IMG/VR virus record: IMGVR_UViG_3300046049_000011 | Span: 1 to 26,145 of that record | Length of the DNA: 26,145 nucleotides | Origin: a virus | Taxonomy: Duplodnaviria > Caudoviricetes | Direction: 5' to 3' (one strand) | Program-made: the position numbers and the translations under genes | Shown: in pieces, positions 1-26,145 of the stretch | How positions within the stretch are numbered: the first letter of the stretch is position 1 | How the letters are laid out: each line of letters opens with the position of its first letter | Notes under the pieces: generated by a model | Databases searched by the model: none | What the model saw: the letters and a program-made list of their open reading frames with translations, nothing else | What the model was told of the DNA's origin: nothing

Positions 1-335
1 GTCGCGAGCACGTCGACGCCGACGAGCACCAGCTGGGTGCGCTGGGCCGCGACGTCGCCCCGGACGGCCAGGCGCGCGTCGGCGACGATCTCCGCGAGGC
101 CGAGCGAGGGCGCCTCGAGGTGGCGGCCGTGCTCGTGACAGTCGAGACAGCGCAGCTCAGCGACCGACCACGTGCCGACGTCGGCCGCCCGATACGCGTA
201 GCAGCGGACGCGATCGCCCTCGCGCATGCGGACGGTGCGCTGGCACGACGAGCAGACGGCGCCGTCCAGGTCGCCGACGGGCTGGCCTGCGAGGACCGTG
301 GCGGGCTCGGCCTCGACGCGCTCGATCGAGGTCAT
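1..335 (-). CDS. Hypothetical CxxC Zn-binding protein, 3' end beyond window edge (MTSIERVEAEPATVLAGQPVG...CSSC...CLDC...)
   Basis: Read by hand, not in the ORF track. ATG at 335 overlaps the SWIM stop (ATGA); open to position 1; two CxxC pairs. Confidence 0.7.
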   Translation of the reverse strand, partial: MTSIERVEAEPATVLAGQPVGDLDGAVCSSCQRTVRMREGDRVRCYAYRAADVGTWSVAELRCLDCHEHGRHLEAPSLGLAEIVADARLAVRGDVAAQRTQLVLVGVDVLA

Positions 336-910
336 CGCTCGCCCTCCGCTGTCACGAGCGGATTCTCACACCTGTCGTCGTGATGGATTTGTCGCCCCAT
401 CATGCGCTCCGTCCAGCGGATCGACTCGGCGCCGCAGTGCTCACAGCGCCAGTAGCGAGCGCCGCCGACCTCGCGCGGCTCGACGTGCGTGCTGAATCCT
501 TGCGGTGGGTCATGGGGGTTGATCCGCTCGAGGCACTCCTCGACTGGATCGGGGTCGCCGGCCTCGGCGTCGGTGCCGCCGTCCGGGACCAACTGGTACG
601 CGTCGTCGTCGGTGTGCTCGCCGAGCTGGTCGTCGACGTCGTCGGGCTCGATCTGCGGAGGAATCGGCCGTTGCCCGTCGGCGAAGCGCGCCCGGCGGAT
701 GTGCTTGCAGCGGACGTCGCGGTGCTCGTGATCCGGACACGTGCAGCGGCCGGCACGCGTGTCGACGCGGTAGCTCGCGCCGGACTGGGAGACGACCTCG
801 TAGATGTCTCCGCCCTGTGGCAGGACACTCATGCACTCCTCGAGGGCGCGGCGGTCGCGATCGGCGGCTGATTCGATACTACTATCTGAGTTGCGTCGTT
901 GGGTGCTCAT
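332..910 (-). CDS. SWIM zinc-finger protein with an extra C-terminal CxxC
   Basis: YxV...CTCPD...CKH SWIM signature; acidic. Start moved to ATG 910, directly after a structured leader. Confidence 0.85.
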   Translation of the reverse strand: MSTQRRNSDSSIESAADRDRRALEECMSVLPQGGDIYEVVSQSGASYRVDTRAGRCTCPDHEHRDVRCKHIRRARFADGQRPIPPQIEPDDVDDQLGEHTDDDAYQLVPDGGTDAEAGDPDPVEECLERINPHDPPQGFSTHVEPREVGGARYWRCEHCGAESIRWTERMMGRQIHHDDRCENPLVTAEGER

Positions 911-982
911 GCTCTCAATCTCCTGAGAGCGCGGTCGGCCGTGCCCAAACACGGCCGGCCAGACAATCGAGTTCTGACCGTG
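911..982 (-). promoter_or_regulatory. Structured 5' leader of the SWIM gene
   Basis: Stems 911-917/924-930 and 937-943/950-956, plus pairing of 930-936 with 976-982. Same architecture upstream of the recombinase gene. Confidence 0.6.
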
Positions 983-1012
983 TCCCGCGCCCTACATACA
1001 GTATTACGTGTT

Positions 1013-1108
1013 GCTTGTAGTTATAGTTTGCGACGCAAACTCGACTATCAAGCCAGAAGTGCAAGCTTTATAATCAAACAGAAACAACGATAGGCTTGTA
1101 ATGCAAGC
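1013..1108. promoter_or_regulatory. Divergent promoter/operator region
   Basis: AT-rich. Perfect palindrome AGTTTGCG-A-CGCAAACT (1025-1041); TTTATAA at 1067-1073, ending 28 nt before ATG 1101; GCTTG/CAAGC half-sites at 1013, 1049, 1062, 1094 and 1104. Confidence 0.65.
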
Positions 1109-2365: not shown

Positions 2366-2550
2366 ACGCCTCGAGCGGTATCGAACGCCCTTCTGCCCGT
2401 TCTATTCGGTTAGATGATGATGATGCACCGAGTCACTGCGGCAAGTGCAATCGGAGGCTCCTGACTGTCTACTACGATATCGCGGAACGTCCAGCGTGCC
2501 CGCGACTAAACCATTTTCTCGCCGGCACTCGGACGCGTCGGCATGGTTAG
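2356..2550 (+). CDS. Small hypothetical protein with CxxC (possibly degenerate)
   Basis: GGAGG plus coupled ATGA start; CGKC present, but the second knuckle reads CPRL. Confidence 0.5.
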   Translation: MTNNASSGIERPSARSIRLDDDDAPSHCGKCNRRLLTVYYDIAERPACPRLNHFLAGTRTRRHG

Positions 2551-2704
2551 CCCAGACCTCCCGGATCGCGACGTCCCTGGCGACGTGGAGTGGTTCGTCA
2601 CGCTCGTGCCGGAGGACCTTGTCCCCGACGAGATCTGGACCTCGATCGGCAACTGCGCGCTCAAGGCGACCAAGACGATTCGCGAGGTCACCAGCGATGA
2701 GTGA
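2543..2704 (+). CDS. Small acidic hypothetical protein (MVSPDLPDRDVPGDVEWFVTLVPEDLVPDEIW..., 53 aa)
   Basis: Read by hand, below the ORF-track cutoff; halophilic composition; overlaps the upstream stop. Confidence 0.55.
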   Translation: MVSPDLPDRDVPGDVEWFVTLVPEDLVPDEIWTSIGNCALKATKTIREVTSDE

Positions 2705-5874: not shown

Positions 5875-6015
5875 CGCGGAGGGAGGCCATGCCGGGGCGT
5901 GGCTGATGATCTCCGCGGAGGGGGCTCTCGGGGCTCATCTCGTATCGTCTCGTCGACTCGACACGCGCTCGTCGCAGGTGTACCATGGCGTTCCCGGTCA
6001 CTCGGGAACGCTTTT
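5875..6015 (+). ncRNA. Putative structured small RNA containing a kink-turn
   Basis: 211-bp gap without a credible ORF; K-turn geometry at 5875-5917; hairpin 5918-5941; terminal 9-bp hairpin 5988-6011 followed by TTTT; promoter-motif variant at 5848-5868. Confidence 0.5.
5988..6015 (+). terminator. Hairpin plus U-tract overlapping the next promoter box
   Basis: GCGTTCCCG/CGGGAACGC perfect stem followed by TTTT. Confidence 0.45.
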
Positions 6016-6040
6016 CGGCGCTGCTCGTCTCCCTCGAGCT

Positions 6041-6313
6041 ATGGCTGAGGACTCTCCCGAGACGCTACACGCTGCACTGACCGAGATCCGTGGCGTCGGC
6101 CCGGCGACCGCCGAAGAGATCGAGCAGGCACTCGCAGAACACGAGCTCAAAGAGGAAAGCGAGACCGGTCAGGACGACTCCGCAGGCGCCGCCGTCGACG
6201 AGGCGCGCGACCAGCTGGGCACGGCGCTCGAGTATTTCGCGAGCGATCGACCGCGCCACGCCGAGCAGCACGTCCAGCGCGCTCACGAAACACTCGACGA
6301 GCTGGAGGGGTAG
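6041..6313 (+). CDS. Small helix-hairpin-helix protein
   Basis: LTEIRGVGPATAEEI HhH motif; start fixed by the promoter motif. Confidence 0.8.
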   Translation: MAEDSPETLHAALTEIRGVGPATAEEIEQALAEHELKEESETGQDDSAGAAVDEARDQLGTALEYFASDRPRHAEQHVQRAHETLDELEG

Positions 6314-6611: not shown

Positions 6612-6643
6612 CGCTTTTCGCCGGCGCTCGTCACGCCGGGGCC

Positions 6644-8692
6644 ATGACCAACCGACAACGCGAGCCGTTCGTCGGCGACGACCAGCGCAGTGCGGTCTCG
6701 GAGATGCTCGGTCGTGTCCTTGAGCACGTCGCGCCCGACCGGTTCGTCGCCGGCGGCGCCTCGGCCGACCATGGCTTCCAGCAACGCCCGCGAAACTTCG
6801 AGCGGCTCAAGAAGCACGAGCGGGTTTACGCTGCTGGCGGCCCGATCACCGATTTTATCGACACTCGCGCGATCATGACCTACGGCACGGGCGTCGAGTT
6901 CGAGACTGACGAGCCCGAGCTCACCGACGAGCAGGGCCGCACCGTCGCCGAGTGGCTCACCGAGCAGTTTCCACTGGTCGACCAGGCGATGATCAGTCGC
7001 GGGATCCATACCTACGTGTATGGCGACGCGTGGCCCGAGCTCGTCGAAACGCGTGGCGGTGACGTCTCCCATATTACGCTCGTCCATCCGACGACGGTCG
7101 CACCGGAGTGGGACGCCCACGGCGCGATCGAAGCACTCGAGCAGGTCGTCAAAGACGGCCGGGGGCGGTGGCGTCGGCAGCCCCTCGAGCTCGATCGCCA
7201 CGGGCACTGGTTCTACAAAAACGAGTCGGCGGGACCACTGGGCGATTCGTTGCTCGCGCAGAACTGGCGAGAGATCCAGTGGTATCGCCGCAACCAGGAG
7301 CAACGCGCCAACGCGATCCGGCTGCACGGGAGCCCAAAGTACCACATCCAGGTTGGCTCCGAGAGCCAGTCGATCCCCGACCGGCTGATCCGCCGCGTTC
7401 GCGATCGCTTCCGCTCGAGAAATATCGACGAAAAGACGAGCTGGACGACCGGCGGCCAGATCGAAGTGGACGAGCTCGACGCCCCAGGCTTCCAGGGCAT
7501 GGAGTCGATCACCGAGACGGACGTCACGAAACTCGCGAGTGGCTTCGGCGTGCCATTGGAGTGGACAAACTTCGGCAGCGCTGGCCTCGGCGAAGGCACG
7601 CCCGCCGAGAGCCGGATTCAGAAGTTCGAACGCCAGGCCCGGGGCGAGCAACGCCGGGCCGCAGAGCAGTTCAGGAAGTTTCCCCTGCGGCTGATCGTTG
7701 ACGAGTTTTCGCCGTTCCCGCCAGGCACCCAGTTCGACATTCAGTTCGGCGATCCCGTCACGGATCGCCAGAAGATCGCCCAGTGGCTCGATCCCTTTGC
7801 GGAGCACTACACTCGCGACGAGATCCGCTCGAAGTTGGGCGATCCACCACTCACCGAGGAGCAGCGCCAAGCCGTCGAGGAGCGCGCCGAGCAGGACGCT
7901 GGGCCAGCCGAGGGTGGTGGGCTGTTCGCGAGCGCCGCCGACGCCGGCGACGCGATCGACGCGCCGGACCCCCTTGACGAGGACGCCAAGCGCGCCCACA
8001 CCGACGGCGGCACGGCCGCCCGGGACAACAACTCAAGTTGTGGTTCGCGAAACGGTAGTGGGCGGGTGCTGTTGCACGGCGAGGCGGCCGCCGACGCGCT
8101 GACTCAGCAGGAGCTGGTCTGGCAGGATGTCTATGAGAACGTCCTGTGGCCCGATGAGGCGCCGGAGCGCCAACTCTTCGAATTTGATCCCGAGGACGTC
8201 CCTGACTTTGTCATCAAAAATTTGCGCCAGGCCATCGCTTCGAATGCGGTGTTTGACGAGTTCGAAACGATCGGCGCCGCCGCAGCCGAGCAGCTCGAAG
8301 GCGTTCTCATAAAGTCACTCTCCCAACCACAGGGCTGGTCGATCACGTCGCTCGCCGAGAACATCCAGGAGGCCGTGCCCGAACCGCTCGAGCGCACCGA
8401 CGCCGAGCGAATCGCCCGCACGGAGACCCAGTCACTCGTCAACCAGGCCCGCGAGGAGGGCTACGAGGCACAGTTCGATCTGACCGAGGAACGATTCGAC
8501 TGGGTCGGGCCCGACGATCAGCGAAACTCCGACGTCTGCCCGGCGATCAAGTCACGGGTGCCCGACACCGGGCTTCCGCTGGACGATCTTCGCGAGCTCG
8601 TCCAAGAGACTGCCCGCGAATTTGGCCACGACCCTCGGCGCTGGACTCCGCACATATCATGCAGGCACACATTTACGCGGCAAGTCGCGTAG
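6644..8692 (+). CDS. Portal protein fused to a C-terminal MuF/SPP1 gp7-like head morphogenesis domain
   Basis: Position after terL; portal-like YGDAW.E, G.S.L and FGVP motifs; C-terminal ERIARTE...W....D.R...C...H..CR MuF signature. Confidence 0.85.
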   Translation: MTNRQREPFVGDDQRSAVSEMLGRVLEHVAPDRFVAGGASADHGFQQRPRNFERLKKHERVYAAGGPITDFIDTRAIMTYGTGVEFETDEPELTDEQGRTVAEWLTEQFPLVDQAMISRGIHTYVYGDAWPELVETRGGDVSHITLVHPTTVAPEWDAHGAIEALEQVVKDGRGRWRRQPLELDRHGHWFYKNESAGPLGDSLLAQNWREIQWYRRNQEQRANAIRLHGSPKYHIQVGSESQSIPDRLIRRVRDRFRSRNIDEKTSWTTGGQIEVDELDAPGFQGMESITETDVTKLASGFGVPLEWTNFGSAGLGEGTPAESRIQKFERQARGEQRRAAEQFRKFPLRLIVDEFSPFPPGTQFDIQFGDPVTDRQKIAQWLDPFAEHYTRDEIRSKLGDPPLTEEQRQAVEERAEQDAGPAEGGGLFASAADAGDAIDAPDPLDEDAKRAHTDGGTAARDNNSSCGSRNGSGRVLLHGEAAADALTQQELVWQDVYENVLWPDEAPERQLFEFDPEDVPDFVIKNLRQAIASNAVFDEFETIGAAAAEQLEGVLIKSLSQPQGWSITSLAENIQEAVPEPLERTDAERIARTETQSLVNQAREEGYEAQFDLTEERFDWVGPDDQRNSDVCPAIKSRVPDTGLPLDDLRELVQETAREFGHDPRRWTPHISCRHTFTRQVA

Positions 8693-10704: not shown

Positions 10705-10735
10705 CCTTATCGCTCGGTTTCGTCACCGCCGGGCC

Positions 10736-12187
10736 ATGGACGGCACTGATTTCGATCCCGACGATATGACTGATGGCGAGCATCGCGCGCTGGCCGAGTT
10801 TCGCAACCCTGCCGAGATCCGCCGCGTCGAGGAGGGCTCGGGCGTCCGGTACAAACGCGTTATGCTGCTGTCGCCGGGCACCTGGGCCGACGCCGGCAGC
10901 CAAGAACACGTCGAGTACAACGCCGACGCGATCCGTGCGTCGGCGGATAACTGGGTGGATCTCGAGGCGATCCGCGACACGATCCCCGAGTGGCAGCAGC
11001 TCGCGAATGCCGATCGGGCGTCGCGACTCGCCGAGCTCGAGGACACAGTCATGCTCGAGGACGCGGCGCCGATCAACTTTCTGCATGGGCCGGCCATGTA
11101 CGGAGCTGAAAGCCTCGACGAGATCGGCGAGGTCCCCCTTGAGTCGATCATCGTCGACGATGACGGTCGCCTGTTTGGTGACATCGTGCTTGATGGCGAC
11201 TCGCCACAATCACAGACGGCGATCGAGCTCGTCGACGAGGTGCTCGAGGCCACCCAGGATCCGAGCGTCGATCCGCCGCCGGTCGGTCCGTCAGTGGAGA
11301 TCCCCGCCGATCGCGTCTCGCAAGATGAGGGCGTCAAGTCCCTCGAGCAGGCGTTCTTTAGCGCTGTGGGGATCGTCTTCGGCCCCGCAAGTCGACCAGT
11401 CGAACTCGGGGAGCAGGCCCGGGAGCGCGCCGTCGCGCTGACCGGGAACGCAGGAAACGGTGGGGTGGTGCTCCGTCGTGATCGCGACGACGGCAGCGGC
11501 GACGGCAATGCATCTAAACCGGCCCCACGTCACCGGTCGCTCATGTCTGACCAGTTTGATCCCGACGCGATGGACGACGAGGAGCTCGCCGAGGTCCTGC
11601 GGACGATGCAGGAGGACATGGCCGAGCTCGAGAGTGCGCTCCAGGACGTCGACGTCGATCCCCAGATGGCCCAGCAGGCCATCGCCCAGGAGGTGAGCAT
11701 GCGCGTCGACGCCGACGAGGAGCTGACCGAGGACGAGGCTCAGGCCGCGGTGATCGACGAGCTCGCCAGCGCGACTGGCCGGGACGCCGATACCCTCCGG
11801 GCGATCGCCAGCGGCGAGATCGACGAGGTGCCCGAGGACGTCGCGACGGCGATGACCGAGGTGCTCGACGTCGACATGGACGACTTAGGCTCACCAGCCG
11901 AAGACGACGAGATGGACGAGAACGAACAGGAGGCCACGATGGCCGAGCTCAAGCAGGTCAAAAACGTCGTCGGCGAGGTCGCCGACCACATGTCTGATAT
12001 CAAGGACATGCTCCAGGCTCGCGAGGAGGAACGCGAAACCCAGGTCGAGGAGCTCGAGCGCCGGCTCTCGGAGCTCGAGAACGAGCCCGTCAAGCGTTCG
12101 CTGACTGGCGAGCAGGACAGCGCGGAGTTCGTCGACGAGGACGACGGACTTGACGACGCGCCGGCTACCGACCGGCCGCTGATGTAG
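10736..12187 (+). CDS. Prohead protease with C-terminal scaffold domain
   Basis: Between portal and capsid genes; PGTW, FLHG (His) and GPSVE (Ser) motifs; acidic coiled-coil C-terminus. Confidence 0.75.
   Translation: MDGTDFDPDDMTDGEHRALAEFRNPAEIRRVEEGSGVRYKRVMLLSPGTWADAGSQEHVEYNADAIRASADNWVDLEAIRDTIPEWQQLANADRASRLAELEDTVMLEDAAPINFLHGPAMYGAESLDEIGEVPLESIIVDDDGRLFGDIVLDGDSPQSQTAIELVDEVLEATQDPSVDPPPVGPSVEIPADRVSQDEGVKSLEQAFFSAVGIVFGPASRPVELGEQARERAVALTGNAGNGGVVLRRDRDDGSGDGNASKPAPRHRSLMSDQFDPDAMDDEELAEVLRTMQEDMAELESALQDVDVDPQMAQQAIAQEVSMRVDADEELTEDEAQAAVIDELASATGRDADTLRAIASGEIDEVPEDVATAMTEVLDVDMDDLGSPAEDDEMDENEQEATMAELKQVKNVVGEVADHMSDIKDMLQAREEERETQVEELERRLSELENEPVKRSLTGEQDSAEFVDEDDGLDDAPATDRPLM
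11543..12187 (+). CDS. Nested in-frame scaffold protein (214 aa)
   Basis: In-frame ATG at the domain boundary, with TCTAAA at -30 and CGTCAC at -15. Confidence 0.65.
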   Translation: MSDQFDPDAMDDEELAEVLRTMQEDMAELESALQDVDVDPQMAQQAIAQEVSMRVDADEELTEDEAQAAVIDELASATGRDADTLRAIASGEIDEVPEDVATAMTEVLDVDMDDLGSPAEDDEMDENEQEATMAELKQVKNVVGEVADHMSDIKDMLQAREEERETQVEELERRLSELENEPVKRSLTGEQDSAEFVDEDDGLDDAPATDRPLM

Positions 12188-14686: not shown

Positions 14687-14745
14687 GTACGATACGGTAC
14701 ACGACAGCCCCGGAGCTTTTCGTGGCTGCTCGTCTCGGCTGGCGT

Positions 14746-14934
14746 ATGCCAACGACACTGTTCCCGTCGATCCTGCCCGATCGCGACGCCGACGACATCC
14801 ACACGCTCGAGAGTGCGTTCGGCGATGGCTGTCCGTTCTGCGACGAGTACACGGGCGAGCACGGCCGCCAGCACGCTCGCAACGCTCACCCCGACCAGTA
14901 CGAGGAGCTCGCGGACCGACACGAGGAGGCCTGA
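14746..14934 (+). CDS. Small C2H2-like Zn-finger protein
   Basis: CPFC...HARNAHP; promoter motif at -30/-15. Confidence 0.75.
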   Translation: MPTTLFPSILPDRDADDIHTLESAFGDGCPFCDEYTGEHGRQHARNAHPDQYEELADRHEEA

Positions 14935-15809: not shown

Positions 15810-15853
15810 TCTGACCACGGATGCTTTTCGCCTCCTCGCGCCACCGCAGGGGT

Positions 15854-16135
15854 ATGCTTGGCTACTTACTCGTCGCCGGCGTCGTCGGGCTCGCCCTTGG
15901 GGCGGTGCTCGTCGCGACCGGCCAGTGGCTTGCCGATCGGCGCCGCGTCGCCAGGGATCCGTTCGGTGCACCTGCCCATCCGACCCACGTCTCAATCGCA
16001 TGCACCGCATGTCACGATACCTTTCCCGATCGCCAGTCTGCCGAGGAGCATCTCGCCGAGGAGCACGGCATGGTCCTCGAGGGCGATGAGGCCGACGACG
16101 TCCTCGTCGAGGCCGAGGTCGAGGGGGGAAACTGA
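15854..16135 (+). CDS. Membrane-anchored C2H2 Zn-finger protein
   Basis: N-terminal TM followed by RRR, then CTAC...F.......H....H. Confidence 0.75.
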   Translation: MLGYLLVAGVVGLALGAVLVATGQWLADRRRVARDPFGAPAHPTHVSIACTACHDTFPDRQSAEEHLAEEHGMVLEGDEADDVLVEAEVEGGN

Positions 16136-16695: not shown

Positions 16696-16733
16696 CCCCC
16701 GAGGCTTTTCGGCGCTGTGCGTCACGCCGGCGT

Positions 16734-17213
16734 ATGGCTCAGCTAGGCCCGTACTATGGCGATACGATGACTGTCTCGCTCAAGGCCGTTGGCACGCCGA
16801 CGGACATCCCGGTGGGTAAGGCCCAAAACGTCGAGATCCGAATCGAGGCCGAAGAAACGGAGTATTTCAGCGCCGAATCGACACTGCGGGACGTCTCTCG
16901 GTTCTCGGAGATCCGGCCGATCTGTGTATTCGAGGTCGGCGCGTGGGACGTCAGTCTGTATAAACAATGGATGGGTGGCAGCGACGACGCGAACACGTCG
17001 TCGTCACTATCAGGTGGGAGCCCACAGGACCCACAGAAATTCAACTTCACTGGGAAATTAACGCCGAGTGACGGCTCGACGGCCTGGGAGGTGACCGTCA
17101 GCAACGTCACGATCCCGACGCTGCCCTTCTGGAACGCCGAGCGCAACGAGTTCGTGGGCAACTCCTACGAGGGCGCCGGCGACGATCTCTCGATCGACAC
17201 GGAGCCGGCATGA
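16734..17213 (+). CDS. Major tail tube protein
   Basis: 159 aa, beta-rich (PVG.AQNVEI); precedes chaperone and tape measure; no sheath gene. Confidence 0.75.
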   Translation: MAQLGPYYGDTMTVSLKAVGTPTDIPVGKAQNVEIRIEAEETEYFSAESTLRDVSRFSEIRPICVFEVGAWDVSLYKQWMGGSDDANTSSSLSGGSPQDPQKFNFTGKLTPSDGSTAWEVTVSNVTIPTLPFWNAERNEFVGNSYEGAGDDLSIDTEPA

Positions 17214-17999: not shown

Positions 18000-18036
18000 C
18001 CCCCCAGTTTTGCCAGTCACCCGTCACGCCGACGCC

Positions 18037-19398
18037 ATGGCTGAGACGATCAACGACCTGCTCGTGCGGATCACGCCCGAGGGGATCGACGAGACGACCG
18101 ACGAACTCGACGAGGCACGGGATTCCTTCGAGGAGACCGCCAACGTTGCCGGCGAGTCGGCTGCCGAGCTCGAAGGCTTTGCCAATCGCTGGCAAGGCGC
18201 CTTGCAGGCGATCACCGCCGGGCTCGTCGCGGGCGCGGCCGTGCTCCTCTCAAAAGTCCCTGTCTTGGGCGAGTCGATGTCGGCGTTGAACGCGATCATC
18301 GACGCCTTTGCGCTCAGGTTGGACTCGGTGTTACGACCGGCGCTGGGGGACACGAACAGCGCACTCTTTGAGTTCGCGAACACAGTCGCCACGGCCGAGG
18401 GGCCGCTCGGAATATTGTTCGACGCGGTCTCCGTGGTGATCGGAATCATCGGGCCGGCGATCGTCGCGATCGCCGCGATCGGCTCGCAGATAGGCAAGTG
18501 GGCGACGACGACGGCGGGCGTTGGCGCGATCCTCCAGAGCCTGGGCTCGACAATCGCGAGCGTGGTCTCGTCGATCGCCGGCTTCATCGCCTCATCGACG
18601 GCGGCCGTGGTCGCGGTCGGGGCGCTCCTGGGCACGCTGGGCGTGGCTGTCCTCGAGGTCACGGGCGTCCTCGACGCGTTCGAGGACCTCGGCGCTGCTC
18701 TGTCGGGGACGGTCGGCGACGCCTTGGTCACGTTCGGCTCGATCATCTCGCTGGGGATCCTCCCGCTGATTGCGAGCCTGGGTGCGGCGATCGTCGGTTT
18801 TGTCAGGGGCACACTCGAGGGGGGCTTTTCGGAAGGGCTCCGACGCGCCAAAGAAAACGCGATCCAAGCCTTCGGGACGCTCAAAGAGAGCATCACCAGC
18901 ACACTCGACTCGCTGGCGACGGCGCTGTTCGACGCTGGTTCAGGGCTCGTCGACGAGCTCATCGACGGGTTGTTGAGCAAGGTCAGCGAGCTTGAGGACG
19001 CTGCCGGCAAGCTCGCCAACGCGATCGCGAAGAACATGCCCTCCTCGCCCGCTGAGACGGGGCCGCTTGCCGATCTCGATCAGGCTGGCCCGGGACTGGT
19101 CGAGACTGTCGCGACGGGCATGGAGCGCTCGGTCGGCCGCCTCGACCAGGCCAGCGGCCGCGTCGCGATGGCCGCGGATCCACGCGGGCAGGGGCAAGGT
19201 CGACGTGGCGATCGCGGCGGTGCCGGTGGTGCCGGCCAGGACGCGGTCACGCGGCAGCTCCAGCAGCTCGTCCAGGCGATGCAACAGTCGCGCCGGGAGA
19301 CCGTCCTTGAGCTCGACGGGCAAACGGTCGCCCGCCAGCTCGAACCACTCTTGGGCGAGGGCGCCGTCCTCTCGGGTGCCACGCAAGTGCGGCGGTGA
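18037..19398 (+). CDS. Tape measure protein (453 aa)
   Basis: A/G/L-rich helical protein with a hydrophobic middle; P.SPA..GPL and LELDG C-terminal motifs. Confidence 0.88.
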   Translation: MAETINDLLVRITPEGIDETTDELDEARDSFEETANVAGESAAELEGFANRWQGALQAITAGLVAGAAVLLSKVPVLGESMSALNAIIDAFALRLDSVLRPALGDTNSALFEFANTVATAEGPLGILFDAVSVVIGIIGPAIVAIAAIGSQIGKWATTTAGVGAILQSLGSTIASVVSSIAGFIASSTAAVVAVGALLGTLGVAVLEVTGVLDAFEDLGAALSGTVGDALVTFGSIISLGILPLIASLGAAIVGFVRGTLEGGFSEGLRRAKENAIQAFGTLKESITSTLDSLATALFDAGSGLVDELIDGLLSKVSELEDAAGKLANAIAKNMPSSPAETGPLADLDQAGPGLVETVATGMERSVGRLDQASGRVAMAADPRGQGQGRRGDRGGAGGAGQDAVTRQLQQLVQAMQQSRRETVLELDGQTVARQLEPLLGEGAVLSGATQVRR

Positions 19399-22417: not shown

Positions 22418-23998
22418 ATGAGTCGCAATCCGACGGACGACAACACAGCCCTGTGGTCGGCGACGCTGAACGCGTTTGCGTCGCGTCAGGCTGGGCTCGC
22501 GATTCTCAGCGGCTGTACGGTCTCGAAGGGCACCGGCGATTTTGACTCGGATGTCTCCTCGGGGACCGTCTGGCTCAACGGCGCGCGTGTGTCGGTCTCG
22601 AGTGCGACCCTCACGCACACCGATACGTCGAACATGTCAAGCGGGGAGACGCGCGTCGACCTGATCTCGGCTGACTCCAATGGCGCCGTCTCGATCACCA
22701 AGGGCACGGCCGCAATGGACCCGGCGGCCCCCGGAATTCCGACTGATGAGGTACTGCTGGGATATTGGCAGATTGCCGGCGACGACGCGTCGCTCGCGTC
22801 ATCGGATCTCTTTGACATCCCTGACCTGGCGATCTCCGTCGAAGACCTGACGTCCGCCGGATCGGATGGGGACATGCCGGTCGTGCAAAGCGACGGGAGC
22901 CTCGAGATGCGCCAGGCCAAATTGCCCGCGCTCTCAGACATCGATAGCAGCTCGTCGGACGCTGCGATCAACCGGCTCGATCGGGTGCTCTCCGACGACA
23001 GTTGGGGCTCGATCGGGTTTGGTCGCGGTGACACCGGGACGTCCGATGAGCACCTGGGCAGCATCCTACTCCCAGATGGTCGCGTGCTATTCCCCCACGA
23101 CGCGAATTCGACGGGAGTGAACATGCTCATTTTCGATCCCAGCGACAACTCAACGACCAGTGGCCCCAATTCCGGCGAGGGGGCGAATCCATTCGGGGGC
23201 GGCGCACTGCTTGAGGATGGCCGTGTCGCCCTCGCACCAGACGAATCGGACAACGTCGGACTTTTCGACCCGTCAGACGACAGTTACACGAGTGGTCCGG
23301 CCCACGGTGAAGGGGACTTCGCGTTCCATGGGGCCGTTCTGGCCCCCGACGGCCGGGCCATTCTTGTCCCGGCGAATTCGGGGAACGTCGGGATTTTCGA
23401 CCCCAGCGACGACTCGTATTCGAGCGTCAATCACACTGAGGGCACCTCGGTGGAATTCAACGGGGGTGTTTTGCTTGCCGACGGTCGCGTCGTCTTCGCT
23501 CCACAAACATCAGACAACGTCGGGATTTTTGACCCGTCAGACGACAGTTACACGAGTGGTCCGGGCCACGGCGAAACTGAACCTGCGTTCAAGGGTGGCG
23601 GGGCGTTGCTCCCCGACGGCCGCGTCGTTTTTTCACCATGGGATTCGGACAACGTCGGGATTTTTGACCCGTCAGACGACAGTTACACGAGTGGTCCGGC
23701 CCACGGTGAAGGAGACAGCGCGTTTTATGGAACGTCGGCCCTCCCCGACGGTCGCGTCGTCTTCGCTCCGAATAACTCAAGCAACGTCGGGATTTTCGAC
23801 CCGTCAGACGACAGTTACACGAGCGGGCCCGATACACAGGCAACGGATGGCGACTTTCGTGGGGCGGCGACGCTCCCCGACGGCCGCGTCGTCTTCACTC
23901 CCGGTGGAACGCGGAATGACTATGGTCTCGTCTATTCGCACGGCCAGCTCCCGAACCCGACGCGGAACTGCACACATCCGTTCATACAGGGGTTCTAA
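22418..23998 (+). CDS. Tail fibre/receptor-binding protein 1 with a 7-blade Kelch-like beta-propeller
   Basis: Anchor domain shared with the next gene; seven ~44-aa LPDGRVVF.P..S.NVGIFDP repeats. Confidence 0.8.
   Translation: MSRNPTDDNTALWSATLNAFASRQAGLAILSGCTVSKGTGDFDSDVSSGTVWLNGARVSVSSATLTHTDTSNMSSGETRVDLISADSNGAVSITKGTAAMDPAAPGIPTDEVLLGYWQIAGDDASLASSDLFDIPDLAISVEDLTSAGSDGDMPVVQSDGSLEMRQAKLPALSDIDSSSSDAAINRLDRVLSDDSWGSIGFGRGDTGTSDEHLGSILLPDGRVLFPHDANSTGVNMLIFDPSDNSTTSGPNSGEGANPFGGGALLEDGRVALAPDESDNVGLFDPSDDSYTSGPAHGEGDFAFHGAVLAPDGRAILVPANSGNVGIFDPSDDSYSSVNHTEGTSVEFNGGVLLADGRVVFAPQTSDNVGIFDPSDDSYTSGPGHGETEPAFKGGGALLPDGRVVFSPWDSDNVGIFDPSDDSYTSGPAHGEGDSAFYGTSALPDGRVVFAPNNSSNVGIFDPSDDSYTSGPDTQATDGDFRGAATLPDGRVVFTPGGTRNDYGLVYSHGQLPNPTRNCTHPFIQGF
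23051..23940 (+). repeat. Intragenic tandem repeats, ~132-bp period
   Basis: AACGTCGGGATTTT(C/T)GACCCGTCAGACGACAGTTACACGAG recurs nearly verbatim. Confidence 0.9.
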
Positions 23999-25192: not shown

Positions 25193-25936
25193 CTATCGCG
25201 AGTGAGTCGCGTTCAGCGCGCGGCGCGTTCGCGTCCCCGACCGGCGGACGTACCGATGGGCCGTCGAGAGATCAGCCCAGCCCAGGAGTGCTTGGAGGGC
25301 AAGCGCGTCGAGGCCGCGGCTGGCGTGATACGACGCGGCCGTTGCCCGGAGACAGTGCGGGTAGATCGCGTCGGCGTCAAGACCGTCGACACGCTCGGCG
25401 GCGCGATCGAGCCGACGGTGGACCGCTGAGTGCGAGCCCTGGTACTGGTCGAAGCGATCGAAATAGTGTTCCAGGGCGAGCTCGACGCGTGGGTCAAAGT
25501 CAAAGGGGATCTCGCGGGCGGCGGCCTCGGTCTTGGATTGCCAGCGCTGCTTGAGGGCGGTCTCGAGATCGAGGGCCTCGTCCTCGCCGGAATGGGCGAC
25601 CTGCTGTTTGGCGAGTTGGGTGCAGTGCCCACAGACCCCACCGTTGCGGCCGTTCGTGCAGGGGTCGTAGCGTGGAATCTCGAGCATCCGATCGCGCCAG
25701 TTGATCCAGCTCTCGTCGAGATGCGTAAGCTCGCCGACGCGGAGCCCGAGTCGCCCCGTCAGCAGGACGATCGTCCGCGTCTCCAACTGGTAGTAGTCAT
25801 CGTCAAGTCGGTAACAGGCCTCGAGGAGCCGCTGAAACTCCCGATCGTCCAGTGCGTCGTCCTTGCTGTGACGAGGAGACTGTCGGTTGGAGTGGCTGCC
25901 GATACGCCTATCCGTACCGCTGTGTGAGTTCGACAT
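25193..25936 (-). CDS. Short tyrosine recombinase/integrase (catalytic domain with Cys-rich insertion)
   Basis: GLRVGEL (R), SKT (K), HCLR, LGW and RY catalytic residues; C-x7-C-x2-C insertion. Start placed at ATG 25936 next to the structured leader. Confidence 0.9.
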   Translation of the reverse strand: MSNSHSGTDRRIGSHSNRQSPRHSKDDALDDREFQRLLEACYRLDDDYYQLETRTIVLLTGRLGLRVGELTHLDESWINWRDRMLEIPRYDPCTNGRNGGVCGHCTQLAKQQVAHSGEDEALDLETALKQRWQSKTEAAAREIPFDFDPRVELALEHYFDRFDQYQGSHSAVHRRLDRAAERVDGLDADAIYPHCLRATAASYHASRGLDALALQALLGWADLSTAHRYVRRSGTRTRRALNATHSR

Positions 25937-26002
25937 GCTTCTGGTCCACCAGAAGCGCGGTCCGCTGTCCAAGCAGCGGGCCTTTCGTGGCCGATGACCG
26001 CG
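25937..26002 (-). promoter_or_regulatory. Structured 5' leader of the recombinase gene
   Basis: Stems 25937-25944/25949-25956, 25963-25967/25974-25978 and 25956-25962/25996-26002. Confidence 0.65.
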
Positions 26003-26145
26003 TTCTGGATGAGTATTCTTGCACAATCCGACTAGTTAAAACCACTGATAATACTCGGGTTGGAGCCAGTGAGAAGCGACCGCCACTCACGTGCTGGCCC
26101 AAGACGGCCACGGTGACAGTGCCGTCAGCACGTGTGAGCCTCCAC

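Follow-up and report, generated by a model that had tools for sequence, protein, structure and literature searches.

In translational riboswitches and RNA thermometers, the expression platform sequesters the Shine-Dalgarno sequence or the AUG. Haloarchaea make mostly leaderless mRNAs, and to our knowledge few cis-regulatory RNA structures are known in archaea as a whole. Haloferax volcanii possesses tRNA-like t-elements that are reportedly cut by RNase P and tRNase Z. Among mobile elements, the transposase mRNAs of IS10 and IS50 are subject to fold-back inhibition, in which additional 5' sequence, present in transcripts that read through, occludes the start site. A bacterial RNA motif associated with integrases, STAXI, is described in the accessible part of PMC2864571 as a tandem pseudoknot of unknown role.

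The leaders analyzed here precede a tyrosine integrase gene and a SWIM-like gene at opposite ends of one viral sequence, and they belong to a family whose members consist of a three-way junction (helix P1 enclosing hairpins P2 and P3) followed by a further hairpin, h3, that ends 0-4 nt before the AUG. As in riboswitch and thermometer platforms, a hairpin would occlude the strand before the start codon and a competing helix, here a long form of P1, would free it, both being conserved; the differences are that the motif is not known to respond to a ligand or to temperature, that its competitor is the 5' terminus of the RNA itself, and that it belongs to mobile-element genes of haloarchaea. The t-elements, likewise haloarchaeal, also have a GC-rich stem of ~7 bp that closes the structure and stacks on a hairpin of 5 bp, but the motif lacks a T-loop, has two inner arms, receives no tRNA call from ARAGORN or Rfam, and is followed by a conserved hairpin and an AUG. 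As with IS10 and IS50, where alternative pairings of a 5' segment and the start region set the transposase level, the mRNA is that of a mobile element, whereas here the 5' end is predicted to open the start site and there is no relation in sequence or structure. With STAXI, as far as the accessible part of PMC2864571 describes it, the motif has in common that it is structured, was found by covariation and lies beside integrase and other DNA-handling genes; the two are unrelated in fold, position and host.

The window and its two leaders

The window (the whole stretch of DNA analyzed, 26,145 bases) is an entire IMG/VR virus record, classed as linear, with a CheckV completeness of 33%. Its plus strand encodes a terminase large subunit, a portal, a major head protein, a tape measure and a baseplate-like protein. 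Taken together with the tyrosine integrase at the right end and the minus-strand SWIM-like gene at the left end, which lies beside a predicted transcription regulator (1101-1724, its divergent neighbor), these structural genes indicate that the window is a temperate tailed haloarchaeal virus or provirus; megablast against phage records gave no match. The integrase start at 25936 agrees with that of many homologues of 235-250 aa, which cover 100% of the query from residue 1. The SWIM-like protein (P0001) is 46% identical over 114 aa to a leader-bearing protein in G028, and a Pfam search at E 0.01 detected neither SWIM nor any other family in it.

Two repeats were observed among the plus-strand genes. 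One family of repeats, 34 nt in length (GCTTTTCG...CGTCAC...CATG), stops at or beside the ATG of structural genes (6010-6043, 6613-6646, 10705-10738, 14715-14748, 15823-15856, 16704-16737 and 18006-18039) and may be an intergenic promoter or terminator repeat. A unit of ~132 nt occurs in four to five tandem copies, 61-80% identical, at 23195-23901 within a 526-aa ORF (22418-23998); it is a repeated protein domain, and the ORF likely encodes a tail or fibre protein.

Table 1. Leader elements and associated genes in the window, by position from its first base
Feature	Position	Strand	Basis or remark
Tyrosine integrase gene (247 aa, P0002)	25193..25936	-	right end; PF00589, E 1.8e-14; PHROG integrase
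Integrase AUG	25934..25936	-	read from sequence/ORF
TATA-like box TTTTAA, integrase leader (putative promoter)	26036..26041	-	33-38 nt before first model column (26003)
5' competitor CCAGAA	26003..26008	-	repeats h3 3' arm; can pair with UUCUGG of h3 5' arm (extended P1)
Integrase P1 5' strand CGCGGUC	25996..26002	-	fold and covariation
Integrase P2 hairpin GGCC-ACGAAA-GGCC	25979..25992	-	A-rich loop; family consensus AGAA..A
Integrase P3 hairpin CGCUG-CUUGGA-CAGCG	25963..25978	-	fold and covariation
Integrase P1 3' strand GACCGCG	25956..25962	-	fold and covariation
Integrase h3 GCUUCUGG-UGGA-CCAGAAGC	25937..25956	-	hairpin abutting start codon; fold and covariation
+25..+37 motif, integrase gene, GAUAGGCGUAUCG	25900..25912	-	family consensus
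SWIM-like gene (192 aa, P0001)	332..910	-	left end; CxC...CxH motif; phrog_17897, E 5e-25
SWIM-like gene start codon	908..910	-	sequence/ORF
TATA-like box CTATAA, SWIM-gene leader (putative promoter)	1021..1026	-	31-36 nt before 990
SWIM 5' competitor AGG	991..993	-	can pair with UCU of h3 5' arm; extension of 3
SWIM P1 5' strand GCGCGG	985..990	-	covariance-model alignments
SWIM P2 hairpin GGUCAGA...UCUGGCC	957..979	-	fold and model alignment
SWIM P3 hairpin GGCCGUG-UUUGGG-CACGGCC	937..956	-	fold and model alignment
SWIM P1 3' strand CCGCGC	929..934	-	last two bases common to h3
SWIM h3 GCUCUCAG-GAGA-UUGAGAGC	911..930	-	GGAG at loop
+25..+37 motif, SWIM-like gene, GAUAGUAGUAUCG	874..886	-	family consensus

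Both leader strings quoted in a first-pass annotation of this DNA are present on the minus strand of the window (Table 1). The integrase leader runs from 26002 to 25937 and is followed directly by the AUG, its elements being, in order, the 5' strand of P1, AU, P2, P3, the 3' strand of P1 and h3; the SWIM-gene leader runs from 990 to 911, again directly up to the AUG, and contains P3, GACCGCG and then h3. Each folds into an outer stem around two hairpins and then an 8-bp hairpin ending at GC-AUG, as that annotation had proposed, with an energy of -37.7 kcal/mol (z -3.92) for the integrase leader and -43.4 kcal/mol (z -4.60) for the SWIM-gene leader, and in neither case was any of 200 shuffles as stable. 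The claim that pairing is retained despite differing stem sequences holds for both copies, except that the outer stem of the SWIM-gene copy is formed by GCGCGG (990-985) with CCGCGC (934-929) and not by CACGGUC with GACCGCG; because this stem starts at 990, the element extends to that position and not to 982. The YUUGGR loop of these two copies is not constant across the family, in which the consensus of the P3 loop is roughly YUGSAR.

Other explanations of the leader regions were considered at the level of the window. The 9-mer GACCGCGCU, common to both leaders, is not significant alone, with at least two copies in 34 of 100 shuffles; as an att-type repeat it was rejected, since it occurs at chance level and a longer end repeat was not found in the window. 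Two other possibilities, that translation starts leaderless or that the proteins begin farther upstream, at TTG 26026 or GTG 952, were also rejected because homologues cover the integrase from residue 1 and the region shows covariation of the RNA type. Separately, a 7-bp inverted repeat, GAGTATT...AATACTC (26050-26056 and 26011-26017, minus strand), brackets the TATA-like box and the predicted start of the integrase transcript, and is a candidate operator.

A structured leader family in Halobacteria

Both leaders are instances of a structured RNA motif that is common ahead of mobile-element genes in haloarchaea and has no Rfam entry. A covariance model, R1, built from the integrase leader of the window and its closest relative only (L002, an integrase locus with the same leader and a protein 72% identical), recovers the SWIM-gene leader with 31.2 bits and E 6e-4, the fourth-best of 23 matches in 270 kb, which bears out the proposal that the two are copies of one shared cis RNA. 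Even between the two sequences in R1 there is a C-to-U change in the outer stem that keeps a G-U pair. R1 also matches the leaders of more distant integrases (six loci and others), and a second model, R2, built from 13 matches, lifts the SWIM-gene leader to 52.5 bits and adds copies before non-integrase genes that lie upstream of integrases, at four loci (among them L026). Strains in whose records an integrase is preceded by the element include Haloarcula amylovorans LR21 (L033), Halomarina rubra ZS-47-S (L072) and Halorussus marinus LYG-36 (L081).

When applied to haloarchaeal genomes, R2 has matches in 53 of 151 Halobacteria (E <= 0.01 per genome), these being an even sample from the class of a Haloarcula genome; it has none in 101 control genomes from the bacterial order of a Pseudoduganella genome, and none in five others (two bacteria and three non-halophilic archaea). 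Two copies within 4-32 kb, as in the window, are present in G003, G004 and contig C2 of each of G113 and G057, and also in the viral contigs of L003 and L004. The lower-scoring genome matches, of which 40 of 41 were examined, have an ATG at the expected place in 39 of the 40, and 28 of the 39 have at least four A/T among the five positions -35 to -31. The model finds no match at the related integrase of HCTV-5 (L009) or anywhere in the record of CGphi46, which also has a related integrase; the integrases of phiH, PhiCh1 and ChaoS9, compared as integrases only, are just 39-40% identical to that of the window. Blastn of one element against plasmids gave just two weak matches, and a scan of IMG/VR with the pattern CGGT..ACCGYGCTTC..GAAGCA returned 58 stretches, 4 of which pass the model, the remainder being chance matches. 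Integrase loci L051-L065, 42-43% identical to the window's integrase, are without the element and have a conserved upstream string of their own, CCTCTATATTCAGC....

No Rfam 15 model matches the window at the gathering score, and even with the E limit relaxed to 10 the leader region has no match. No account of a motif of this kind was found in Rfam 15 or in the accessible portions of the literature searched; the accessible text of PMC5737381 and PMC2864571 contains no word starting with 'halo', and the supplementary lists of these two papers could name archaeal motifs.

Covariation among the homologues is strong and extends to all helices. MAFFT by itself misaligns the inner hairpins, and the alignments used (A7-A9) were fitted to the model. 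A first set of 13 sequences has pairs in 95.7% of cells where slid controls have 28-45%, with compensatory changes in 16 of 23 pairs and none of 500 shuffles reaching these values, figures that are upper bounds because fitted alignments favor the model structure and the kinship of the sequences inflates shuffle tests. Subject to the same bias, so again as upper bounds, the 85 aligned matches of A9 have standard pairs in 93.2% of 1841 cells (35.8-37.3% with partners slid by 1-3 columns), compensatory changes in 21 of 23 pairs, and 385 doubly changed cells where shuffles give 118.6 +/- 9.2, and 0 of 500 shuffles reach any covariation measure; within this set P3 (helix 4) is paired in 99.8% of cells with compensatory changes in 5 of 5 pairs, and h3 (helix 5) in 94.4% with such changes in 7 of 8. 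The compensatory types CGCUG/CAGCG, CGGUG/CACCG, GGGCG/CGCCC and CCGUG/CACGG are plain in the raw alignment. G-U exceeds A-C in helix cells, 62 to 40 (p 0.037), which favors a structure read on the sense strand, and all matches checked in locus searches are sense to the neighboring gene.

The unpaired bases that are conserved lie in the A-rich loop of P2 (AGAA..A) and in the P3 loop, and the sequence of P1 is strongly conserved. P1 pairs across a variable span of 40-60 nt, P2 varies freely in length and sequence while its pairing is kept, and the junction strands measure 0-3 nt and are variable. Inspection of the alignments by eye for contacts of a loop with another loop or with an arm, such as the P2 loop with the arm of h3 or the P3 loop with the region around +31, showed no consistent pairing.

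Upstream of the first model column, a profile of 45 distinct sequences anchored on that column shows A at -39 and -38, a T/A peak at -34 to -31 (82-91% A+T), W at -15 (84%) and -13 (71%), and a conserved GAA at -3 to -1. This matches the haloarchaeal BRE, TATA box 'TTWT' and '-10 WW' element as given in the accessible part of PMC4983044. From this profile and a TATA-like box ~32 nt upstream, we infer that transcripts would start about 4 nt before P1. The family can thus be described as conserved structured RNAs of roughly 75 nt between a promoter-like box and a start codon. One subgroup of four loci (L257, L267, L270 and L273) is without the TATA-like box and has a different conserved upstream sequence. 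Palindromes of the form GCTAAC...GTTAGC flank the TATA-like box of many copies (seven loci, among them L203 and L207) and are likely repressor sites.

An ATG follows the element in 83 of 85 matches, 0-4 nt after h3, the two without one being L026 and L260. The ORF that follows is the integrase itself in 11 loci. Other downstream products include SWIM zinc-finger proteins (PF04434, in three loci), an IS1595 transposase, HTH-HNH endonucleases (two loci, one of them L212), DUF7344 proteins (two loci), winged-helix/HTH proteins (two loci) and many small proteins without a family. The element is therefore not specific to early or lysogeny genes of this virus, as had been supposed; it precedes many kinds of mobile-element genes across Halobacteria. 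A tRNA-Val gene (2482-2556, minus strand) lies ~900 nt downstream of the element-bearing HTH-HNH gene of L212, which fits an integrated element beside a tRNA gene.

The first ORF is short (17-37 codons) in 12 of 45 loci, and in 6 of these 12 the next ORF begins in an ATGA overlap. Short ORFs of 21-37 codons whose stop overlaps the start of the main gene in this way occur in L081, L211, L212, L215, L219 and L035, an arrangement that suggests translational coupling; the next ORF is the integrase in L081 and L035, and a like arrangement was seen by eye in L003 and L004. In the window, the codons of the short ORF are fused to the integrase as an N-terminal extension.

Conservation extends into the coding region. 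At +25 to +37 from the AUG, at a fixed distance and before unrelated proteins, there is a nucleotide motif, SAWARNNGYAYCG, with A26 in 36, C36 in 32 and G37 in 36 of 44 sequences; the residues it encodes differ widely (D, E, Q, L, F and others). A covarying or pairing partner for it was sought in the coding region and in the leader, and none stood out.

Competing helices before the start codon

The conserved GAA before P1 and the GC with which P1 begins together read GAAGC, as does the 3' end of h3 next to the AUG, and both copies are complementary to GCUUC, where the 3' strand of P1 joins the 5' arm of h3. Long P1 and h3 are accordingly mutually exclusive conserved helices at the translation start region. 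The upstream bases can pair with positions 3-5 of the h3 arm in 78 of 85 sequences at -1, 63 of 84 at -2 and 65 of 84 at -3, and pairing falls off farther upstream (29 of 79 at -4 and 32 of 77 at -5). Variants change together, GAAA and GAGA each with UUUC, and the SWIM-gene copy of the window, with AGG and UCU, has the usual GAA/UUC of the family altered on both sides. P1 is extended by 2.65 pairs on average; exchanging the upstream parts at random among the sequences lowers this to 2.16 +/- 0.09, and 0 of 1000 such shuffles reach the observed value. When 26 of the 85 sequences, each with 4 upstream nt added, are aligned with MAFFT alone, RNAalifold returns exactly the long P1 as the consensus, with 9 pairs of which 4 have compensatory changes.

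We compared the energies of the two folds in 83 sequences (L026 and L260, which have no ATG, were dropped). Forcing open the last 9 nt and the AUG has a median cost of 1.7 kcal/mol. Without this constraint, 24 sequences have a minimum-energy fold that leaves all 8 nt before the AUG unpaired, and 29 have a closed one, with 7-8 of these 8 nt paired; when folded open, 62 of 83 pair at least three of the four 5'-terminal nt. For the integrase leader of the window, the h3 form (-37.7 kcal/mol) is favored over the open form (-32.5) by 5.2 kcal/mol, and in the constrained open fold 5'-CAGAACGCGGUC pairs with GACCGCG(C)UUCUG, using the CCAGAA at 26008-26003. The SWIM-gene leader has -43.4 kcal/mol in its closed form and -41.4 in its open form. 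By these energy models, the integrase copy appears to lean to the closed fold and the SWIM-gene copy to be nearly balanced.

What is new here is that the 5'-terminal GAAGC duplicates the GAAGC before the AUG and that the two folds are nearly isoenergetic, which in the models suggests a translational switch. Two helices that exclude each other, are each conserved and differ little in energy are characteristic of a switch. We put at roughly one half the probability that these leaders switch translation between two states through competition of the 5' end with the strand that precedes the AUG. In the fold with short P1 and h3, the strand before the AUG would be locked and translation low. In the fold with long P1, which would include the 5' end of the RNA, the AUG would be free along with the 3' arm of h3 and a GGAG-like stretch rich in G, and translation could proceed. 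Candidate triggers are the order of co-transcriptional folding, a factor acting at the conserved P2 or P3 loops, or start-site choice. Since h3 and the alternative helix compete for the AUG-adjacent strand, a role in translation fits best. The first-pass annotation had proposed a shared cis RNA that controls processing or translation; the cis element, its mRNA sense and its covariation stand, translation is the role that fits best, and the tRNA-like part is not supported, as discussed below.

Some observations count against the switch. One is the advantage of 5.2 kcal/mol that the closed fold has in the integrase copy of the window. Sequences whose h3 begins GCUG... have P1 extended by one pair only, and the +25..+37 motif is left unexplained. 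The GAA before P1 probably belongs to the RNA, judging from promoter geometry, and could be conserved as an initiator element instead of for pairing.

We also examined Shine-Dalgarno-like content. GGAG, GAGG, AGGA or GGUG is present in h3 in 27 of 45 sequences, where 13.7 are expected. The SSU rRNA was sought in the draft genome G001, where it was not found, and was taken from two carrier genomes, G097 and G111, in which its tail reads ...GGAUCACCUCCU. A match of at least 4 nt to the complement of this tail occurs in the last 25 nt of 52 of 83 leaders, compared with 35.4 +/- 4.3 in 300 shuffles (maximum 47), with a modal spacing of 9-10 nt to the AUG, but the measure is unspecific, as the first 45 nt also hold a 4-nt match in 63 of 83, because GGUG belongs to P3. 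Haloferax 5' UTRs reportedly do not need Shine-Dalgarno pairing. This content lends weak support to the switch.

Alternative readings and significance

Not all conserved features of the leaders require switching. The nucleotides of the P2 loop (AGAA..A) and the P3 loop (YUGSAR) are conserved, as is the sequence of P1, and the +25..+37 motif points to recognition beyond the helices, all of which would be expected of a static module whose junction and loops are the binding site of a protein, encoded by the host or by the element, or protect the 5' end against 5'-3' decay. Such a module needs no pair of exclusive helices, whereas long P1 and h3 both show compensatory changes and are nearly isoenergetic, and we consider it rather improbable. 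The exclusive helices are also what a ligand-sensing riboswitch would have, with the P1/P2/P3 junction as aptamer and h3 as expression platform: the layout is that of translational riboswitches, where stabilization of P1 decides whether the AUG-adjacent strand is free, and some unpaired nucleotides, in the P2 and P3 loops, are conserved. Junction strands of 0-3 nt and variable length leave little room for a binding pocket, however, and the mobile-element genes downstream have no metabolite in common, so that a riboswitch in this sense seems quite unlikely.

A tRNA-like processing signal was the reading given by the first-pass annotation, and its geometry can be followed in the family as far as size goes. 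Between P3 (5-7 bp) and the 3' strand of the 7-bp P1 there are 0-2 nt, so that the acceptor-like stem is contiguous with a T-stem-like P3 in a stack of ~12 bp, and the integrase copy of the window has 2-3 nt between the 5' strand of P1 and P2. If P1 on P3 mimicked an acceptor/T-arm minihelix, RNase P and/or tRNase Z could cut there, as with the tRNA-like elements that Haloferax uses, and the mRNA would begin at h3. A T-arm consists of a 5-bp stem and a 7-nt UUCRANY loop; the P3 loop has mostly 6 nt and the form YUGSAR, and is neither a 7-nt T-loop nor of the UUCRANY type. ARAGORN calls no tRNA in the window and none at the element in 60 loci, the Rfam scan at E up to 10, which includes the tRNA model, leaves the leader region unmatched, the anticodon arm is missing and only two inner arms are present, and the predicted 5' leader before the outer stem is only about 4 nt long. 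The repeat of the h3 3' arm at the 5' end is also left unaccounted for. The likeness to a tRNA is one of geometry only, and we give the processing signal little credence.

The inverted repeats could also act as DNA, as operators or as recombination sites, whether double-stranded or as attC-like folded single strands. In favor of this, P3 forms a palindrome that is fairly well conserved, many copies having CCGGUG-N6-CACCGG, recombinase genes are among those that the element accompanies, and the 9-mer of the two window copies is a direct repeat. This 9-mer is expected by chance, though, and the element also stands before genes unrelated to recombination, in a fixed position between a TATA-like box and the ATG; pairing of P1 across a variable span, free variation of P2 with its pairing kept, and the excess of G-U over A-C all speak against a site that is read in DNA, which we judge very improbable. 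Integron attC sites lie at the 3' end of promoterless cassettes, in arrays beside the integron integrase; the leader motif does not fit that type, being located between a TATA-like box and an ATG, in one to a few copies per mobile element and without arrays.

We therefore return to the two-state translational switch as the main reading. A further and more tentative idea, to which we give a low probability, is that the three-way junction may sense ionic conditions, a small molecule or a protein of the host and thereby tip a bistable leader across the haloarchaeal mobilome. If so, integrases, transposases and other selfish genes would be translated according to the condition of the host cell, and the motif would be the first regulator class of its kind reported from mobile elements of haloarchaea.

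The motif is common, being present in about one third of the sampled Halobacteria genomes, and is strictly tied to mobile-element genes. It bears on how structured, leadered mRNAs are translated in haloarchaea, and it is a compact, mutable test object both for archaeal translation initiation and for the throttling of recombinases by proviruses and transposons. Its covariance model is a practical marker of the starts of mobile-element genes, including many small ORFs that are unannotated.
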